NCBI GenBank assembly: GCA_951406725.2 | Contig: OX597823.1 | Location: forward strand, 16,492,001-16,556,000 | Length of the DNA stretch: 64,000 nt | Direction of reading: 5' to 3' | Origin: Octopus vulgaris | Taxonomy: Eukaryota | Shown here: positions 3,540 through 62,140 of the stretch, one piece after another | Numbering within the stretch: position 1 is the stretch's first letter | How the letters are laid out: every line of letters starts with the position of its first letter | Program-made: the position numbers and the translations under genes | The notes under the pieces: generated by a model | The model's database searches: none | Told to the model about the DNA's origin: nothing | The model's input: the letters and a program-made list of their open reading frames with translations, nothing else

Positions 3540-5035
3540 TACTGGCTTCAGTCTTTGCAACTTTTTCAACTTAGAGTAATGCATGAAAAATAATTAAATT
3601 GTAGAAAAATTGAATGAAATGTTTTTTTAAATATTTCCATAGTCTTCAAATAGATAGGACATTTTCCGCTTTTCTGTCTCTCTTTTACTTTTGTGAAGGC
3701 TCAGTAGGTAGGTAGGTTGTAACAGATCTGAAGAAATATTTAATATGAGAGATGTGGGTTCTTGGTTTTGATTGTTTAAGCAGCAGTAGCAGAGGAGAAG
3801 AAAAGGAGGAGGAAGAAGAAGACGAATTAAAATATAAGAAAAAACAGGAGTTGTATGACAGTAGTAGGTTGTGGATGGAGTCCTTTTTAATGGTCAAGTG
3901 ACCTAAAAGTGACCTGTTGTAGTGATTGGAATTGTTCTGAATAAATTCATTGGTAGTGACTGTTCTGAATATATCATTTTAAATATTTGTGTGGGTATTA
4001 TTCTAAGGCCCTTGAAGTAGTGTCATTTGTGATGGAAGCATTCAAAAGGGGTTATATTTTGCGATAAAACATAACTCCTTGCTAATGCACTGATTATAGG
4101 TTGCATCATCCCTGAATTTACAGGAGGAAAAAATTCTGAAGTTGGGTTGTTCATTACTGGCGCAAATGTCGATGTGTCCACTGAATGCTATTTTTCTGAA
4201 TACCCGAATTTTAATCTGGGATCTATGTAGGGTCTTCCTTTGGTGTGGACTATTTTTGGTTTGGCTTATGTATTGATTTCTACATCTTGAGCAAGTTAAT
4301 ACATATATTAGGTTTGCTGAAGCACACGTGAAGTTGTTTTTCATTGTAAAACACTGACCTTGTTTGAAGGAGAACTCCGATCCCTAAATTAGGTTGATTC
4401 ATATACCACAGTTAGGTCTTCTGCATTTTTTTACTGATAGCTTCAGTGTTGTCGCCGAGTGTATCTAGGCTTGTGTTAAGAGACTTTTCATAGACTTGGG
4501 TTGTCTTTTACTCTTTACAATGGTGTGCATTTGGAGGATTAAATTCATTATGTGGTCCCTTTTTAGTAGAGGAATGTTCTGGAGGATGGCATCGAAGGCT
4601 TCATTGTTAAAGGGGTTGTGTGTGGATATGTATGGTAGGGCTTTTGCTTGTAAATCCTTCTCTTATTTGGGATGACTGGGTTTGCGGATGTTGAGTTGCA
4701 AGCCTATATCAATTAGTGATGATGGGTAGTTCCTGGTGATGAGTGTATCCTTTAGTTCATGTAGTCATGTGTCCCTGGTGTTTGTATTAGAAACTATAGT
4801 ACAACTCCTTTTTGCCAAGTTGAAGGGGATATTCATTCTAGTGTGTCTGGGATGGCATGAACTGAACAGTAAATATTGCTTGGAGTCTGTGACCTTTTTG
4901 TATATATCTGTTTCTATTTTGTTGTTGGATTTCTTAATGTGGATGTTGGGGAATGGAAGTTGTCGATGGCTATATTCTATTGTAAATTGAATGTTTATGT
5001 CAAGTCCATTTATAAGTGCTTGAAATTATTTAAGT
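3540..5035 (-). pseudogene. decayed Penelope-like element (RT C-terminus plus GIY-YIG endonuclease and 3' region)
   Basis: ORF 4042..4344 FTCASANLIYVLTCSRCRNQYISQT...H has the GIY-YIG pattern with CxxC. Upstream minus-strand frame reads NIQFTIE..LPF...TDIYKKVTDSKQYLLFSSCHPRH..NIPF, typical of the PLE RT thumb. Stops and frameshifts are present. Confidence 0.85.
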
Positions 5036-6330: not shown

Positions 6331-7204
6331 AGCCTGGTGCAGTCACCCCTCCACTGTGCTCAGCTTGGCACCTCTGGTCACATTATCCAACCCATGCCAG
6401 CATGGACAATGGTTGTTAAATAATGATGATGATGATAATGATGATGATGATACACAGACACACACACACATATACAGAGAGAGAGAGAGAGAGAGATGAG
6501 TGTGTGATATCTTTCTATTACTTGTGCCACTTATATACTGATGAATGGCATATGAGCTACCTATATTCAAGAATTCCTACCATAATTCTCATCACTCTAC
6601 CTCTCTTGCTCATCGTCATGATGTCCATCTATAAGAAACTGTTTTGGGCCTGCTTCTGTAGATTCATTGCCATCCATTACTTACTCTTGCCTCTGTCCTC
6701 CTATACTACTACTCATCACTCTCTCTACTCTCTTCACTCTGACTTTCTCTTTCTGCTATCATTCTCTTGCTTCCTTCACTCACCCATTCAAGTTTTGCTT
6801 CTACTATCACTCTCTATCTCACTCCTACTTGGTTGCAGTACAATGAGTGAACACACTCTTCTTGAAGTAGTGAGTATTCGTTATGTTTAAAATATGCAAG
6901 GCAACACTGTTTGCTGATGCCGTAACAAAATATATCGAGTACATTTCTGTAAAGTGGTTGGTGATCAGAAGGACATCGAGTCATAGAAACCAAGCCAAAA
7001 ATAGTGTGTGTATGTGTGTGTGTATGCATATATATATATATATATATATGCATATATATATATACATACATGACTGGGCCTGATGAAGCCTTCTGGCTTC
7101 ACAGACCCCAGTAGAACCGTCCAACCCATGCTAGCATGGAAAACGGACGCTAAACGATGATGATGATGATGATGATGATGATATATATATGCATATATAT
7201 ATCA

Positions 7205-7673
7205 TCTGTGCTAGCGGGACACATCCATGCTAGGTGTGAGCTAAGAGCACCATCTGAGCATGATCGTTGCCAGAGCAACTAACTGGCTTCCATGCTGGTG
7301 GCACATAAGGCATCGTTTGAGTGTGATCATTACCAGCGTCGCCTTACTGGCACTTGTGCCGGTGCTACGTGAAAAGATATTTGAGCGAGGTCATTGCTAG
7401 TGCCGCTGGACTGGCTCTTGTGAAAGTGGCATGTAAAAAACACCATTTGAGCGTGGCTGTTGCCAGTACCGCCTAACTGGCCCTCGTGCCGGTGGCACAT
7501 AAAAGCACCCACTATACTCTCAGAGTTGTTGGTGTTAGGAAGGGCATCCAGCTGTAGAAACACTGCTAGATCTGACTGGCCTGGTGCAGCCTTCAGGCTT
7601 CCCAGACCCCAGTTGAACCGTCCAACCCATGCTAGCATGGAAAGCGGACGTTAAACGATGATAATGATGATGA
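7205..7673 (+). mobile_element. SINE/RTE-tail family D with (GAT)n tail
   Basis: AAAAGCACCCACTA...AGGAAGGGCATCCAGC...CCCATGCTAGCATGGAAAGCGGACG, then a GAT-repeat tail. Short tail fragments also at ~5292, ~6345, ~7072. Confidence 0.8.
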
Positions 7674-7773
7674 TAGGTCATACAAAATGTATAAACAGAT
7701 GATGAGTTTAGGTTAACTGTTGTTATCCATAGATTTATTCCAGGAACTTTTCAGTGGCAGTTTGAGTAACAGC

Positions 7774-8009
7774 ATTAATAAAATAGAAGATGGAATGTGT
7801 ATTAGATGTTATTAAGTACAACACATGTTTCGACCCGTCGTTCTGGGTCTCTTCGTGTTTGATGGACAAATAACAGTAAGCAAACCAACACAAGAAATCT
7901 CTAGTGTGACTTTTTTATTGATGTAACCGAAGAGACCCAAAACAATGGGTTGAAACATGTGTTGTACTTAATAAAGTCTAATACACATTCCATCTCCAAT
8001 TTTATTAAT
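7774..8009. mobile_element. inverted pair of Penelope-type terminal repeats with hammerhead-like motif
   Basis: Arms 7774-7855 and 7928-8009 are reverse complements. Each has (A/C)CGAAGA-GACCC-N8-GGGT(C/T)-GAAA-CATG. Confidence 0.6.
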
Positions 8010-8283
8010 ACTATATATATATATATATAAATATATATATATAACTAATGTAGGATAAAATTTTTTTCGGGAAAAAAAATTTTATCAATGGCCAGCATAT
8101 CAAAAAATACCTTTAAAGGTTAAATTTATAAATAATTTACAAGATAAGGGCAAAAGAAAAATTCTAATGCCAAATACGCCGAAACCAAAAATTGCCGATA
8201 ACCATTATAATTTATGCGTCTCAAAACAAACCGATAGAAATCTCTAAAAAATTTGTTATTACCGTATTGGTCCAATTTCGGGG

Positions 8284-8315
<32 letters not shown>

Positions 8316-8319
8316 TAGC

Positions 8320-8745
8320 GGTGGCTTTAGCTTGTATCTGAGAATTCATTTTCTTCTTTGCTGGATGCTTTCTTTATGGTGATGTCATTGATGACTCTGT
8401 AGGCCAATTCTTGTATAGAAGCATCAATGGCATTGACTGCATGGCAATGTTGGTGGAGGACGAAGTTGATTTTGTCAAGTCTTTTTCACCTGGCATTTGA
8501 TTTCTTCCTTTGCTCTTCTGGTGGCTTTGAAGTTTTTGGTTCCAATGGTGATGGGACACCACCACTTGTTACGATCTTGGGCTTGTGTCTCAAACAATTT
8601 AAGCTCAATTCCAGTGGCTTCCAGTGTTGCTTTGATTTGGTCCTTGTATCTTCAAAGAGGGCAACCCTGTGGTTTTCTTCCTGAAGTGAGCTTACTGAAT
8701 AAGACTTGGCATGGGAACCTTGACTCTTCCATTCTTGCTACATGT
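8320..8745 (-). pseudogene. RTE-like LINE 3' fragment
   Basis: Minus-strand frame reads VGHVARMEESRFPCQVLFSKLTSGRKPQGCPL*RYKDQIKATL, the RTE post-RT region; poly-GAT-like context. Confidence 0.7.
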
Positions 8746-8948
8746 CCTACATACATGTGCATGTGTAAGTATGTATCTATTTGAAAATATGATTGACACA
8801 AAAATAGTATTGTGTTGGACAAAATACAGAACGGCGTTTAGTTTTCTTGTCCTTTAGATTTTGAATTCAAATCCCACAGGAATCAACACTACCTTTCATT
8901 CTTTCAGGATCAATAATGAAGTAAATACCAGTCATGCACTGGTGTTTG

Positions 8949-8954
8949 TTTATT
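8949..8954 (-). promoter_or_regulatory. candidate polyadenylation signal of the GT7 gene
   Basis: AATAAA on the minus strand ~230 nt past the stop codon. AT-rich context makes a chance match likely. Confidence 0.25.
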
Positions 8955-9185
8955 CAACTATCACCTAATCCATCCCACCCATCATGATAATGAAAAAAAT
9001 CACTATATTATGACTCAAGAGTCATAATATAGTAACACAACCCTATCATACAGAGACTCTCACTTTTGCTATGAAACTGATGTCTAGACCTGCAGATGAT
9101 ATCTTGCACAGTAACTGACTCTGCAGCATATTCACATTTAGATATTTTGCAAATTAATATCTAATGATATCATAATTTGCGACTT

Positions 9186-9462
9186 TTAAGCAGAGGAAAA
9201 GACGACTTTATTAACCCTGAATGGTAAATTAAAAGATGAAAACCCTTGTCCAGGTTCTAAAGGTTTTAATACATACCACCAAAGACTCTCCTGAACTGGG
9301 TTGGTTGGCTGCTTCTTGGGAACTGTGCTTGTACCAATATTAACCGTGATGTTGGTATAGAGTGGTCTATTATCCCTAGCCACAACTGTATAATTCATTC
9401 CTTCATGGTCATTCAGGCCATCAGCTGACCACCGACTCCGCCAACTTAAGAATAGTTCGTTT
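9186..9462 (-). CDS. GT7 gene last coding exon
   Basis: TTGCAG|A (G)NELFLSWRSRWSADGLNDHEGMNYTVVARDNRPLYTNITVNIG...FSSA*. Carries the DGLN and PLYTNITVxIG terminal motifs. The six exons sum to 1110 nt, i.e. 369 aa plus stop. Confidence 0.9.
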
Positions 9463-9944
9463 CTGCAAGAATAAACCTAGAGTTAGTTTTCACTTGATGA
9501 CATTGATAGTCAGGTATCTGTGTGTATGCATGCTTGCACTCATACACATAAGTATATAAACACACATACACTAACAGCAAGGCTGCCTCTATGAAGTTGC
9601 TTGACCATTTCTAAACAGCAGCCAAATCTCTTTTAAGTCAATACCCACAATCTTTAAAAAAAAAAAAAGGACATATTAAATAATTAGGTTAGTTCTAGAT
9701 ACCCCAACTGGACATACCCGACATTCATGGCTGTAATGATTTTGATCATAAGTATGCTTGTTCAGAATTAGTTTAGGGCAAAACAATAACACACCCTGAC
9801 AAACAGATATACATTAATATGCATGCAAGAATACATACATGTTACATGAAAACTCCAAATTCCCACAGAAACACATAACATGCATTAAAGATTGCATGCA
9901 CACACACACACAAACTTGCATATGAGAGTACATATATTTTTTTT

Positions 9945-10197
9945 CTTTTTTACTTGTTTTAGTTATTAGACTGTGGCCATGCTGGGGCATCACCTCGAAG
10001 AACCTTTAGTTGAATGACTTGGCTTCAGCACTTATTTTCTTTTTAAGCCTAGTATTTATTCCATCAGCCTCTTTTGCCAAACTGCTAAGTTATAGGGATG
10101 TAAACAGACTGACATCAGTTGCCAAGCAGTGTTCGAGGAGAAACACATACAAACATGCACACACACAAGCATGCATACACACACTTGCATACACACA

Positions 10198-30085: not shown

Positions 30086-30301
30086 AAAAATTGTTCTTAA
30101 ATTTTTTAAAAAAGAATCTATGTTGTATAGTATTGGTTAAGAGCACGGGCTACTAACCCCAAGATTCTGAGTTCAATTCCAAGCAGTGACCTGAACATTA
30201 ACAACAACAACAACAACAATAATAATAATTGTACATAATTCCTCATCTCTTAAATATAGAACTGTACACTGCTTTTGTTTCAATTTAAAAATAATGAACT
30301 A

Positions 30302-30770: not shown

Positions 30771-31130
30771 CAGTTCTATATTTAAGAGATGTGGAATTAT
30801 GTACATTATTTACATTTGAAAGATATTTGTCTTCGTCTTGTTTGTTGTTAACATGACAGGCATATGGCGTAGTGGTTAAGAGCACGGGCTACTAACCCCA
30901 AGATTCCGAGTTCACTTCCAAGCAGTGACCTGAACATTAACAACAACAACAACAATAATAATAATAATGATAACAACAACAACATCGAAAAATACCTTAG
31001 GACTGAGAACCCAGGTTCGAAATTTCCCCAAAACACCTGAAGAAGGCTGGAGGGTATATCAGCCGAAACGTGTTAACAACAAACAAGATGAGGAGAAATA
31101 TCCGTCAAATGTAAATAATGTAAATAATGT
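30771..31130 (+). mobile_element. tRNA-head/hammerhead Penelope-type module (family E): inverted 3' fragment plus full unit
   Basis: 12-bp TSD AAAAGCAGTGTA (30759-30770, 31131-31142). Inverted tail 30771-30853, tRNA-like head from ~30858, CTGAAGA at 31037 and GAAA at 31065. Confidence 0.85.
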
Positions 31131-31413
31131 AAAAGCAGTGTATTTCAACAAAAATTGATTAACAAAAGAGTGAAAGTGATCTAAATTAAAACCCTCCTTC
31201 ATAATTTCATGTTAATTTATGTTTCAAATACCAGCTTAATAATCCCTTTCTACTATAGGCACAAGGCCTGAAATTTTAGGGGTGGAGATTAATTGATTAC
31301 ATTGACACCAGTATTTGCGAAAGGATGAAAGGCAAAGTTGACCTTGGTGGAATTTGAACTCAGAACTCAATTCTGCCAGCTTGCTGCCTTATGCCAGCTT
31401 TATAATGACAGAT

Positions 31414-49003: not shown

Positions 49004-49417
49004 GACTGGGATGAAGTTAAAATAATAGACACAGGAAAATACGAAAACTAAGAGAAGCAGCACATATGCTAGGACACAACAACCTCCTAAGTAGACTGAG
49101 TGTGGATATGAGCAGCATAAGGGACCCAGTATTAAGGAAGGATAGGAAAATATTAGATTTATAAGCCCTAAAATTCACTCCATAATTGCCTATGGGCATA
49201 TGGCATATTGGTTAAGAGTGTGGGCTACTTACCCCAAGATTCTGATTTCAATTCCAATCAGTGACCTGAACAACAACATTGAAAAATACCTTAGGAATGA
49301 GAACCTAGGTTCGAAATTTCCCCAAGACACCTGATGAAGGCTGGAGGGTATATCAGCTAAAACGTTGTGTTAACAGCAAACAAGATGAGGACAAATATCT
49401 ATCAAATGTAAATAATG
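49004..49417 (+). mobile_element. 5'-truncated Penelope-like element: probable GIY-YIG C-terminus, then tRNA-like segment, then hammerhead motif (family E)
   Basis: DWDEVKIID / (frameshift) HRKIRKLREAAHMLGHNNLLSRLSVDMSSIRDPVLRKDRKILDL* (stop at 49164). Head GGGCATATGG from 49194; CTGATGA at 49331. Confidence 0.75.
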
Positions 49418-49429
49418 AAATAAGTTAGT

Positions 49430-59752: not shown

Positions 59753-60556
59753 TAGTTTGAAATATCAATCATTCATTTCCTTATTCTCTTTGAAGGGAAC
59801 TAACATAATTATTGTAGATCTAAGATAGAAATACATTCTTAAATGTACTTTGTTTTAATACTTTAGTCATCAAGAAGAGTCAGAGTCCATGTCATCTGCA
59901 GACCTTTCAGCATTCATGTGATCATGATATCTGCAAGAAAAATGTGAGGGACAGAGTTCCTGAGGTTTAAAACTCTGGTGAGGGAGAATTAGAAAAAGGG
60001 ATAAGTACATGCCCAAATGCAGCAACACAGTAAAGATGATGAAAGGAGGGAAAAATGTGTCAAGTAGGCCAGGGAGGAAATGATAGCTAGTTAAGAAAAG
60101 CAGAGGCCATTGTAGTAGTAATAGAATAGGAAGAGAAAAAGACAGGGTACAGTGTTGTTGTGGGCTGGTAAAGGCATCTTTGCTAATTAATTGAAAGGCA
60201 AGGATGAGTAACTGATCAAACCTAAAGTATTTCTGGTTCTATAAAAGAAGGCTAAATACTGACTTACAATTTGTACTTCTTTTATATACATGGGGTCACC
60301 ATGTATAAAACATAGTTATGTTGATAAGCAATTAGAGGAGCAGTGACCTGATCACAAGACCTGCTAAGAATAGCAGCAAAATTTCCTTCATGTCCCACTT
60401 TACCTAAATAGTGAGAAATAAAAAGGCACGACAATGAGGGTGAATGAGGCAGAACAAAGTACTAATTATAGTTCTATATCTAAGAGATGAGGAATTATGT
60501 ACATTATTTACATTATTTACATTTGATGGATATTTGTCCTCATCCTGTTTGCTGTT

Positions 60557-60602
60557 AACACAACGTTTCAGCTGATATAACCTCCAGCCTTCATCAGGTT
60601 TC
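60557..60602 (-). ncRNA. minimal hammerhead ribozyme motif (left arm)
   Basis: GAAAC-CTGATGA-A-GGCTG-N10-CAGCT-GAAA-CG-TT-GTGTT. The catalytic core is intact; stem I has one mismatch. Confidence 0.65.
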
Positions 60603-60649
60603 TTGGGGAAATTTCGAACCTGGGTTCTCATTTCTAAGGTATTTTTCAA

Positions 60650-60703
<54 letters not shown>

Positions 60704-60944
60704 CATTATTATTATTATTGTTCAGGTTACTGCCTGGAATTGAACTTGGAATCTTGGGGTTAGTAGCCTGTGCTCTTAACCACTATGCCATATGCCCGTG
60801 GACGTAGTGGTTAAGAGCACGGACTACTAACCCCCAAGATTCTGAATTTGATTCCAAGCAGTGACCGGAACAATAATAATAATAATAATAATAACATTGA
60901 AAAATACCTTAGGAATGAGAACCCAGGTTCGAAATTTCCCCCAA

Positions 60945-60989
60945 GACACCTGATGAAGGCTGGAGGGTATATCAGCTGAAAGTTGTGTT
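60945..60989 (+). ncRNA. minimal hammerhead ribozyme motif (right arm)
   Basis: GACAC-CTGATGA-A-GGCTG-N10-CAGCT-GAAA-G-TT-GTGTT. One stem III base is lost. Confidence 0.55.
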
Positions 60990-61349
60990 AGCAGCAAACA
61001 AAATGAGGACAAATATCCATCAAATGTAAATAATGTAAATAATGTAAAGTACTAATTAGTCAGATATTATTTATCAATCTCTATTTATACTTTTAATGAT
61101 AGATTTGTTCAGTCAGAATTGATTGAGAGTTAAACAACACCAACAATGGCATAGTTTTGCTGCATGATGAAATTAATATTCATATTGAGCTTTTAGCGGT
61201 ATAGTACTTGTATGAAGTGACTGTAAAGTTTAGAACTTTTTGAAGTTATCAATAGGGTTTAACTCATGCAGTTATGATGCTGAGAAAAAAAGACGGTATC
61301 TACTTCATATAGTTTGTGTATACTGGTGTTAGTTTGACACTCATTAAAT

Positions 61350-62140
61350 TGAGGATGATGATGAAAATGGATCAAAATGGTAATGAGAATGATAAAATTG
61401 ATGATGATGATGATGACAGCAGTGATGGTGAATGACGACAAAGATGACAATAACTGCAATTATATCAACAATAGTTATCAGGATGGCAATAGTAGTGATG
61501 ATGATAATAGTAACTGTGATTATTATTATGATAATAATTATGATAATAATTGGACAGTGATTATTATCAATATGATAATGATGATAATCATGACAATCAT
61601 TATTATGATGATGAAGCTGATGATAATGATAACTGATTATAATGATGATGATGACATGAGTGATGATGGGACGACAATGATGATAATGATGACGATGTTG
61701 ATATTCATTATGATATTGATGCTGCTGATGTTGGAGATGGGGTTGTCAAAGATTACAGTGATAGTGGTGGTTAAAAGAGAGAATGAGAAAGAAACTGTGC
61801 AAAGCTACCACGCCTGTTACAGTTGTCATGGTTAAAGTTCTTCCTGAACAGATGTGTTTAATCTTTGCAAACATGGATTAGAGATTAAAAGAACATTGAT
61901 AATAAATGACAACAGCGGTAATGATGATAGTGATAGTAATGATGGGTGTGATGACAATGAATACGACAAAGATGACGATACTGGTTTTAATGATGATGAC
62001 GTTGATGATGATGATATTACAATAGTGGTGGTGGCCATTATGAGAATGAGGATGACAATGACAGATGGATGATAGTTGTGAAGACAAGGATTGTGGCAGT
62101 GGAGGTGGTGGTGGTGGTGGTGGTGGTGATGATGATTTTT
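61350..62140. repeat. degenerate (GAT/AAT/GGT)n low-complexity tract
   Basis: Imperfect trinucleotide repeats that give M/D/N-rich pseudo-ORFs. Confidence 0.85.

Follow-up and report, generated by a model that had tools for sequence, protein, structure and literature searches.

The repeat at positions 60456-61058 of the window (the whole 64,000-nt stretch of Octopus vulgaris DNA analysed here, contig OX597823.1, positions 16,492,001 to 16,556,000) is built from a unit of tRNA-like head, AAT run, hammerhead and tail, and we consider it close to certain that this unit is the pseudo-LTR of a Penelope retrotransposon. Hammerhead, inversion and tail are already known Penelope traits. Unusual is that a tRNA-derived head with A and B boxes opens the pseudo-LTR, that most copies start exactly there, and that the sense strand of the ancestral sequence is devoid of TTTT over 2.8 kb. 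Judged from these features of the sequence, it is fairly probable that the element carrying this head was copied from RNA that RNA polymerase III (Pol III) had started.

Results

The insertion is flanked by a 13-bp target-site duplication (60456-60468 and 61046-61058, plus strand) and consists of two inverted arms that meet at 60801/60802, in agreement with the original prediction of a single insertion of two head-to-head units inside one duplication. The left arm lies on the minus strand. It includes a 32-nt Penelope tail (60469-60500), which runs on into the ORF in long copies and accounts for the roughly 32 extra nucleotides that had been noticed on one arm only; the right arm is without it. 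The adjoining body (60501-60651) represents the first Penelope ORF codons, with the ATG at 60631-60629, and holds a minimal hammerhead motif (60557-60602) with intact core, a stem I mismatch and a predicted cut after GUU. An (AAT)n run (60652-60720) separates this ATG from the complete tRNA-like head with its A and B boxes (60725-60797, placed by alignment to host tRNA-Arg-TCG), which is the 5' end of the pseudo-LTR, and four parent-element bases immediately upstream of the head (60798-60801) lead up to the inversion junction. On the plus strand, the right arm starts with a head that is 5'-truncated at about +10 (60802-60866) and continues with an (AAT)n run (60872-60894) and a body with a tail-less end (60895-61045; ATG at 60915-60917), whose hammerhead motif (60945-60989) has lost C15.2. 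The two bodies are identical at 143 of 151 positions, and both hammerheads have decayed, with a G-U pair closing the foot of stem II in each. The A box, the anticodon-like arm, the B box and the AAT run were all found where they had been placed, as were the CTGATGA/GAAA core and stem II. The supposed second B box is missing the final C of the B-box consensus, and it sits in the first ORF codons.

Further family copies occur in the window. At 49007-49423 (plus strand), the 3' end of an endonuclease coding region passes directly into head, AAT run and body. Another inverted insertion (30772-31131) combines a tailed short arm on the minus strand with a full unit on the plus strand within a duplication of about 12 bp. 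A copy at 30130-30263 (plus strand) has head, AAT run and tail with the body deleted; here, as in loci L154 and L159, the tail-proximal repeat follows straight on from the AAT run and the hammerhead region is wholly deleted, probably by microhomology. Just 3' of the insertion under study, a long degenerate GAT/AAT triplet-repeat tract extends over 61340-62130.

The order of parts in the parent element is head, AAT run, ATG, hammerhead, tail, rest of the ORF (about 835 codons, coding for RT and endonuclease), 29 nt and second pseudo-LTR. That the unit is the pseudo-LTR of this autonomous element follows from the ORF-head and tail-ORF junctions, together with the ATG inside the unit. Several tail-anchored loci have coding sequence directly before the head. 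The head follows the endonuclease in 16 of 20 loci, with a fixed place 29 nt past the stop in 15, and it comes after the ORF stop in 18/20 loci of a partly overlapping set. Reverse transcriptase (RT) motifs lie upstream of the endonuclease, and RT, endonuclease, head and body are continuous in 5 of 15 RT loci. At the other end, among 12 loci selected by the N-terminal part of the ORF, six have body and tail passing without a change of strand into that part. Of these six long copies with their 5' repeat, only one (L292) begins at the head. L295 and L298 have repeat parts at both ends.

The majority sequence of 70 natural fragments (2,833 nt) contains one open frame of 840 codons. Its first Met lies inside the unit body, 70 nt before the predicted cut, and the tail starts 122 nt after the ATG in the family majority, hammerhead and tail being coding sequence in long copies. 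A search with the endonuclease peptide of the window copy at 49007-49423 yielded 3,929 candidates, and among the 150 that were scored we found no intact ORF, the longest open frame being at most 362 aa. An RVT_1 profile matched above its cut-off (34.1 bits). The Pfam GIY-YIG profile (PF01541) gave no match to the family's own endonuclease piece, and the endonuclease was assigned by its motif and by homologues, two of which (P0025 and P0059) carry PF01541. Altogether 311 homologues of Penelope architecture were identified, the nearest with 53-66% identity, and one homologue cluster includes barnacle proteins. The element has a single ORF with RT followed by a C-terminal endonuclease and no N-terminal endonuclease, its pseudo-LTRs overlap the ORF start, and its 32-nt tail falls within the 30-40 nt known for one-end tails of the Penelope/Poseidon type. 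The zinc-finger linker of the Neptune/Nematis type is absent in L249 and present in the Neptune-like loci L091 and L096. By this architecture, the element is assigned to the Penelope/Poseidon type.

Young Neptune-like elements retrieved by the Pfam GIY-YIG search were considered as partners and rejected, as they show no similarity to the unit. In one Neptune-like Penelope family, a young one (L067, L072, L091, L092 and L103, e.g. L103:939-3281), many 781-aa frames are intact, the elements end in TA microsatellites, and a long upstream open frame overlaps the ORF start. A hammerhead-like motif with a U3-A8 core variant lies near the 3' end (L103, about 4155-4205). By eye, hammerhead-like motifs with altered cores are also found near the 3' end in other Neptune-like families (L096:3800-3850, L093:3980-4030 and L094:3555-3590).

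In the host genome (2.8 Gb, 227 contigs), the hammerhead pattern has 4,219 exact matches and a 29-nt tail word 3,864, compared with none for the reversed and the word control, respectively. Since only 20 of 118 hammerhead-spanning arms match the pattern exactly, we estimate about 25,000 arms genome-wide. The arms have decayed to a median identity of 93% to the family majority. Among the first 90 tail matches on contig C1, 59 loci carry an inverted arm, and in just one of these 59 is the tail present on both arms. Exact flanking duplications of at least 8 bp were found in 33 of 50 loci with a measurable inverted body versus 0/50 controls; they are mostly 9-14 bp long, and one of the 33 is a TA microsatellite. 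The layout with two arms and one tail is a trait of the family and not peculiar to the window. Mobilisation by Penelope, as originally proposed, is borne out by the one-sided tail, the frequent inversions and the continuity with a Penelope ORF.

Short copies outnumber ORF-linked copies by about 5-7 to 1. No sequence private to short copies was seen, and in 150 loci examined the short unit formed no conspicuous head-to-tail arrays. In 77 of 90 loci, a TTTT run occurs no more than 300 nt from the tail. Bodies that lack a head are often found next to the AAT tails of other repeats, and a few LINE- or SINE-like repeats repeatedly have such bodies in their AAT tails (L168, L194, L206; L161, L207; L018, L171, L220, L287), which suggests preferred insertion into, or template switching at, AAT runs. 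Family words are present in sequencing runs of five organisms. Three raw RNA-seq runs of a single organism, examined together with one contig set, contain 6,835-10,122 family reads each, equally on both strands; these reads are mostly 85-95% alike and extend into flanks and inverted arms. As the reads are unstranded, stem from many loci and run into the flanks, they look like passive transcription of old copies. No pile of read starts or ends appeared in the three unstranded runs, a library type that can miss circular or cleaved monomers.

The hammerhead of the family majority displays every feature listed for the minimal fold, as had been predicted: the CUGANGA and GAAA core, the unpaired base before stem II, the G10.1-C11.1 pair, a palindromic stem III and an NUH cut site. 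In related loci of other organisms, the core motif occurs in 14 of 80, about 12 of them with a pairing stem II of different sequence. In a relative at 54% identity (P0006, P0125), the N-terminal peptide for which the hammerhead core codes is preserved. A search for other hammerhead families with the same core gave 99 matches versus 23 in the control, mostly mutated copies of the family under study. Within the family, copies of which were chosen by their tail and in which the region is also coding, core changes number 40 versus 55 expected (p = 0.02) and stem changes 117 versus 125, so that the stems, unlike the core, show no better conservation than their surroundings. The common core variant sits at the tolerant position 7, and no compensatory pair was seen. 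The 5' ends of copies coincide with the predicted cut in 7 of 48 cases versus 3.8 expected (p = 0.08), and we did not accept this as enrichment at the cleavage site. Because copies span the predicted cut and their 5' ends are not clearly enriched there, sequence being retained on both sides of it, the copied template RNA was apparently mostly uncleaved. The head-to-head arrangement places the two hammerheads on opposite strands, and therefore cannot provide the dimer, two motifs in tandem on one RNA, on which minimal hammerheads depend; possible sources of a dimer would be a full repeat-ORF-repeat RNA or two RNAs acting in trans. We regard the hammerhead as the usual Penelope motif, of predicted function, and found no support for self-cleavage or circular RNA.

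The 73-nt head of the family majority has 49/75 identities to host tRNA-Arg-TCG at L121, in keeping with the predicted tRNA origin; for the head of the window copy the value is 43/74. This tRNA was the best of 35 distinct host tRNA sequences covering only 7 isotypes, which leaves the parent isotype unsettled. The A and B boxes of the head match the A/B-box consensus. They have changed slightly less than the remainder of the head, with 27 versus 35.5 and 24 versus 34 changes (p = 0.085 and 0.047). Rfam returned neither a tRNA match to the head nor a hammerhead match, and ARAGORN recognised no tRNA in the head, also with relaxed settings; the assignments as tRNA-like head and as hammerhead are based on motifs and alignment. 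With a strict pattern, no tRNA-like A/B-box head was found beside 80 related elements of other organisms. The host locus L112 is a tRNA-Cys gene cluster with variants, including copies with ACA and ACT anticodons.

Among 130 head-bearing arms, 80 start between -14 and +8, 38 within the head and 12 further upstream; the 11 arms at -14 are head-start junctions over-extended by BLAST into the inverted arm. Genome-wide counts of exact 20-mers fall from 5,148 in the head to 1,080 just upstream and 884 about 155 nt further up, or, roughly corrected for mutability, from about 19,000 to 2,600 and 1,600. Start positions and word counts together lead us to conclude that most copies begin at the head. 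In the parent, a hairpin of -9.6 kcal/mol spans the head start. The pile-up of starts could be explained by the start of the RNA, and in part also by this hairpin.

Pol III stops at runs of at least four T. The sense strand of the natural fragments (71,057 nt) has 23 TTTT runs versus 145 after shuffling (lowest of 100 shuffles, 116), and almost every one of the 23 is at a site private to its copy; TTT, by comparison, is found 403 times. TTTT is absent from the 2,833-nt majority, where about 3-5 would be expected, with P values for zero occurrences of 0.0045 (base shuffle), 0.031 (synonymous shuffle) and 0.035 (codon-order shuffle), and TTVTT occurs once versus 5.1 expected. Controls had more TTTT than expected: 54 versus about 25 in eight Neptune-like pieces of the same genome, 86 versus 63 in 37 unrelated open frames, and 340 versus 277 in 59 related Penelope elements of other organisms, 2 of which have none. 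The latter set comprises the elements with a coding match of at least 1.2 kb, leaving out 21 shorter ones, and a model fitted to it gives P(0) = 0.002. These numbers describe one ancestral sequence, as the family copies are not independent. GGGG is missing from the majority too (0 versus 3.7), and it is scarce in the controls as well (31 versus 48; 87 versus 102), whereas TTTT is not. We consider the depletion of T runs to be suggestive of Pol III transcription, not decisive.

Discussion

The tRNA-like start of the element, combined with the absence of stop signals over 2.8 kb, makes it likely that the element was copied from Pol III transcripts. Going further, an autonomous coding element might have switched to Pol III altogether, having captured a tRNA as promoter and purged TTTT, with tens of thousands of SINE-like solo copies arising from internal priming in the first repeat; we put this forward tentatively, as a possibility short of an even chance. 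In the likely course of events, which does not depend on such a switch, Pol III would start a few bases upstream of the head and, from the 5' pseudo-LTR, would read the whole element and through the 3' repeat, giving rise to full-length copies; alternatively, Pol III initiating in 3' or solo repeats would produce short RNAs that end at the first TTTT of the flank. Reverse transcription would then be primed inside the RNA by the element's own protein, at one or the other of the two tail edges, as has been demonstrated in Anolis Poseidon. Such priming would generate tailed as well as tail-less ends and drop the 3' trailer, and priming in the first repeat would yield SINE-sized solos. Head-to-head arms might form when the cDNA end folds back at the short palindrome of the head start or switches template by microhomology, and the hammerhead would stay uncut in those RNAs that were copied. 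Pol III RNA is uncapped; the simplest source of protein would be Pol II read-through RNA.

The element may have acquired its head by capturing a SINE made of a tRNA and an AAT run, an idea based on the headless bodies that often adjoin AAT tails of other repeats. A competing explanation takes this as the whole story: the head would be a fossil of such an old SINE, transcription would be by Pol II, and the hairpin would have caused the pile-up at the head by halting reverse transcription or by making the cDNA fold back. The parent has the hairpin across the head start and a self-complementary cDNA end, and the junctions are perfect palindromes around the head start; we find it plausible that the hairpin accounts for these palindromic head-to-head junctions through fold-back of the cDNA. 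Headless bodies in AAT tails illustrate how such joins form, GGGG is absent from the majority as well as TTTT, and the Penelope element of D. virilis has a Pol II-type promoter, described as LINE-like and internal (PMC2377424). On the other hand, the ends of many arms fall at -7 to +1 although the break in the partner arm is at another place, and, as the 3' foot of the hairpin is at +10, such ends fit the end of an RNA better than a stall. The A and B boxes are intact in the majority, and the lack of TTTT over 2.8 kb runs against the trend in the 59 related elements. We therefore deem a mere fossil rather unlikely and give preference to an RNA started by Pol III at the head.

An independent SINE/retrozyme hybrid, as originally proposed, would be a non-autonomous, self-cleaving and perhaps circular Pol III product mobilised by Penelope enzymes in trans. 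Short copies are in the majority, tailed solos could have turned into masters, and the core is slightly better kept than the flanks, with its common variant at position 7. The unit likewise resembles a SINE in several respects of the SINEBase definition (PMC3531059): it has at least 60% tRNA identity over 60 nt (49/75 columns), is shorter than 1 kb and interspersed, and is present in at least 100 copies. It departs from this definition in not being non-autonomous and LINE-dependent, since it is the terminal repeat of an autonomous element and holds its start codon. The unit belongs to that element at both ends, no sequence private to short copies was seen, head-to-tail arrays did not stand out among the 150 loci, and cleavage would leave head and priming region on separate pieces, although copies extend across the cut. 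An independent origin as such a hybrid is largely refuted, and we see very little chance for it. A tRNA SINE of the ordinary kind, mobilised by a LINE and resembling a hammerhead by chance, would explain the tRNA head, the simple-repeat-like end and the 9-14-bp target duplications, but is practically dismissed by the one-sided tail, the inversions in 59/90 loci, the continuity with a Penelope ORF, and the recurrence of this motif in related Penelope elements whose stem II sequences differ.

The closest known counterpart to the Penelope/Poseidon-type element described here is Poseidon of Anolis carolinensis (PAc; Frangieh et al. 2024, PMC11167929). According to the accessible parts of that paper, the ORF of PAc starts at the hammerhead, and reverse transcription starts internally (at 111-118, with priming sites about 110-150 nt into the ORF) at two sites bounding the tail, on an uncleaved RNA template. 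As in the octopus family, the pseudo-LTR overlaps the ORF start, the hammerhead lies in the first codons, the tail is ORF sequence, and RT is followed by a C-terminal GIY-YIG domain. The two differ in the distance from ATG to cut (70 nt in the octopus family, 26 nt in PAc), in the lack of an intact octopus copy among those scored, and in the octopus head, a tRNA-like head or Pol III promoter not being reported for PAc in those parts. Penelope-like elements with minimal hammerheads (Cervera and de la Peña 2014, PMC4209133; Craig et al. 2021, PMC8557442) share with the octopus family the core, the unpaired base, the G-C closing pair and the palindromic loopless stem III, as well as inverted 5'-truncated copies, a one-end tail of 30-40 nt and many solitary motifs; an A/B-box head and a terminator-free sense strand, as in the octopus family, are not described for them in the accessible text of either paper.

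As a precedent for a terminal repeat that holds a Pol III promoter, TRIMp3 come nearest (Cassandra, Helenus and Ajax; Kojima 2024, PMC10886601); their promoter is of small-RNA origin, and that of Helenus is tRNA-like. TRIMp3 are non-autonomous LTR elements of 0.3-1.3 kb whose autonomous partners are argued to need Pol II, whereas the promoter-like head of the octopus family lies in the repeat of an autonomous coding element itself. Non-LTR retrozymes (PMC7229834) and Schistosoma Sm-alpha likewise combine a short repeat with a type I hammerhead in animal genomes; retrozymes, however, are non-coding head-to-tail repeats with canonical ribozymes and circular RNAs, while octopus copies are dispersed or inverted, and coding. 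The octopus SINEs OK, OR1 and OR2, as portrayed in the accessible text of PMC4758252 and PMC4824008, have a tRNA head, fewer than 700 bp, tens of thousands of copies and target duplications, as has the short form of our family. One of them is a CORE SINE, the two sources differing on whether it is OR1 or OR2, and, unlike this one, the unit has no room for a CORE domain. The comparison with OK, OR1 and OR2 was by description only, and the short form may be identical with one of them. The accessible main text of a 2026 paper on O. vulgaris repeats (PMC13282606) makes no mention of hammerheads. In the literature, to which this comparison was confined, we came across no Penelope pseudo-LTR described as starting with a tRNA head.

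The accepted view is that Pol II transcribes autonomous non-LTR elements and that Pol III transcribes SINEs, which depend on LINEs (PMC3531059 and PMC10886601). The octopus family blurs this line, with a SINE-type head in the repeat of a coding element and a terminator-free coding strand. If Pol III indeed transcribed the whole element, the family would depart from the rule by which transcription of autonomous retroelements falls to Pol II, and it would open a route from a Penelope element to a SINE. Confirmed use of Pol III would mean that this enzyme can make a 3-kb transposition template, turning the route of translation into a question, and would explain how Penelope elements seed SINE-like families. 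Should Pol III not be used, the family would be an ordinary Poseidon-type family with a captured tRNA fragment. Repeat libraries may also list Penelope pseudo-LTRs among their unclassified SINEs.

As a side observation on T runs, two related Penelope elements on metagenome contigs, L317 and L340, contain 0 versus 3.8 and 1 versus 3.6 expected TTTT runs in the coding strand; neither has a visible tRNA head, and their 3' regions are T-rich.
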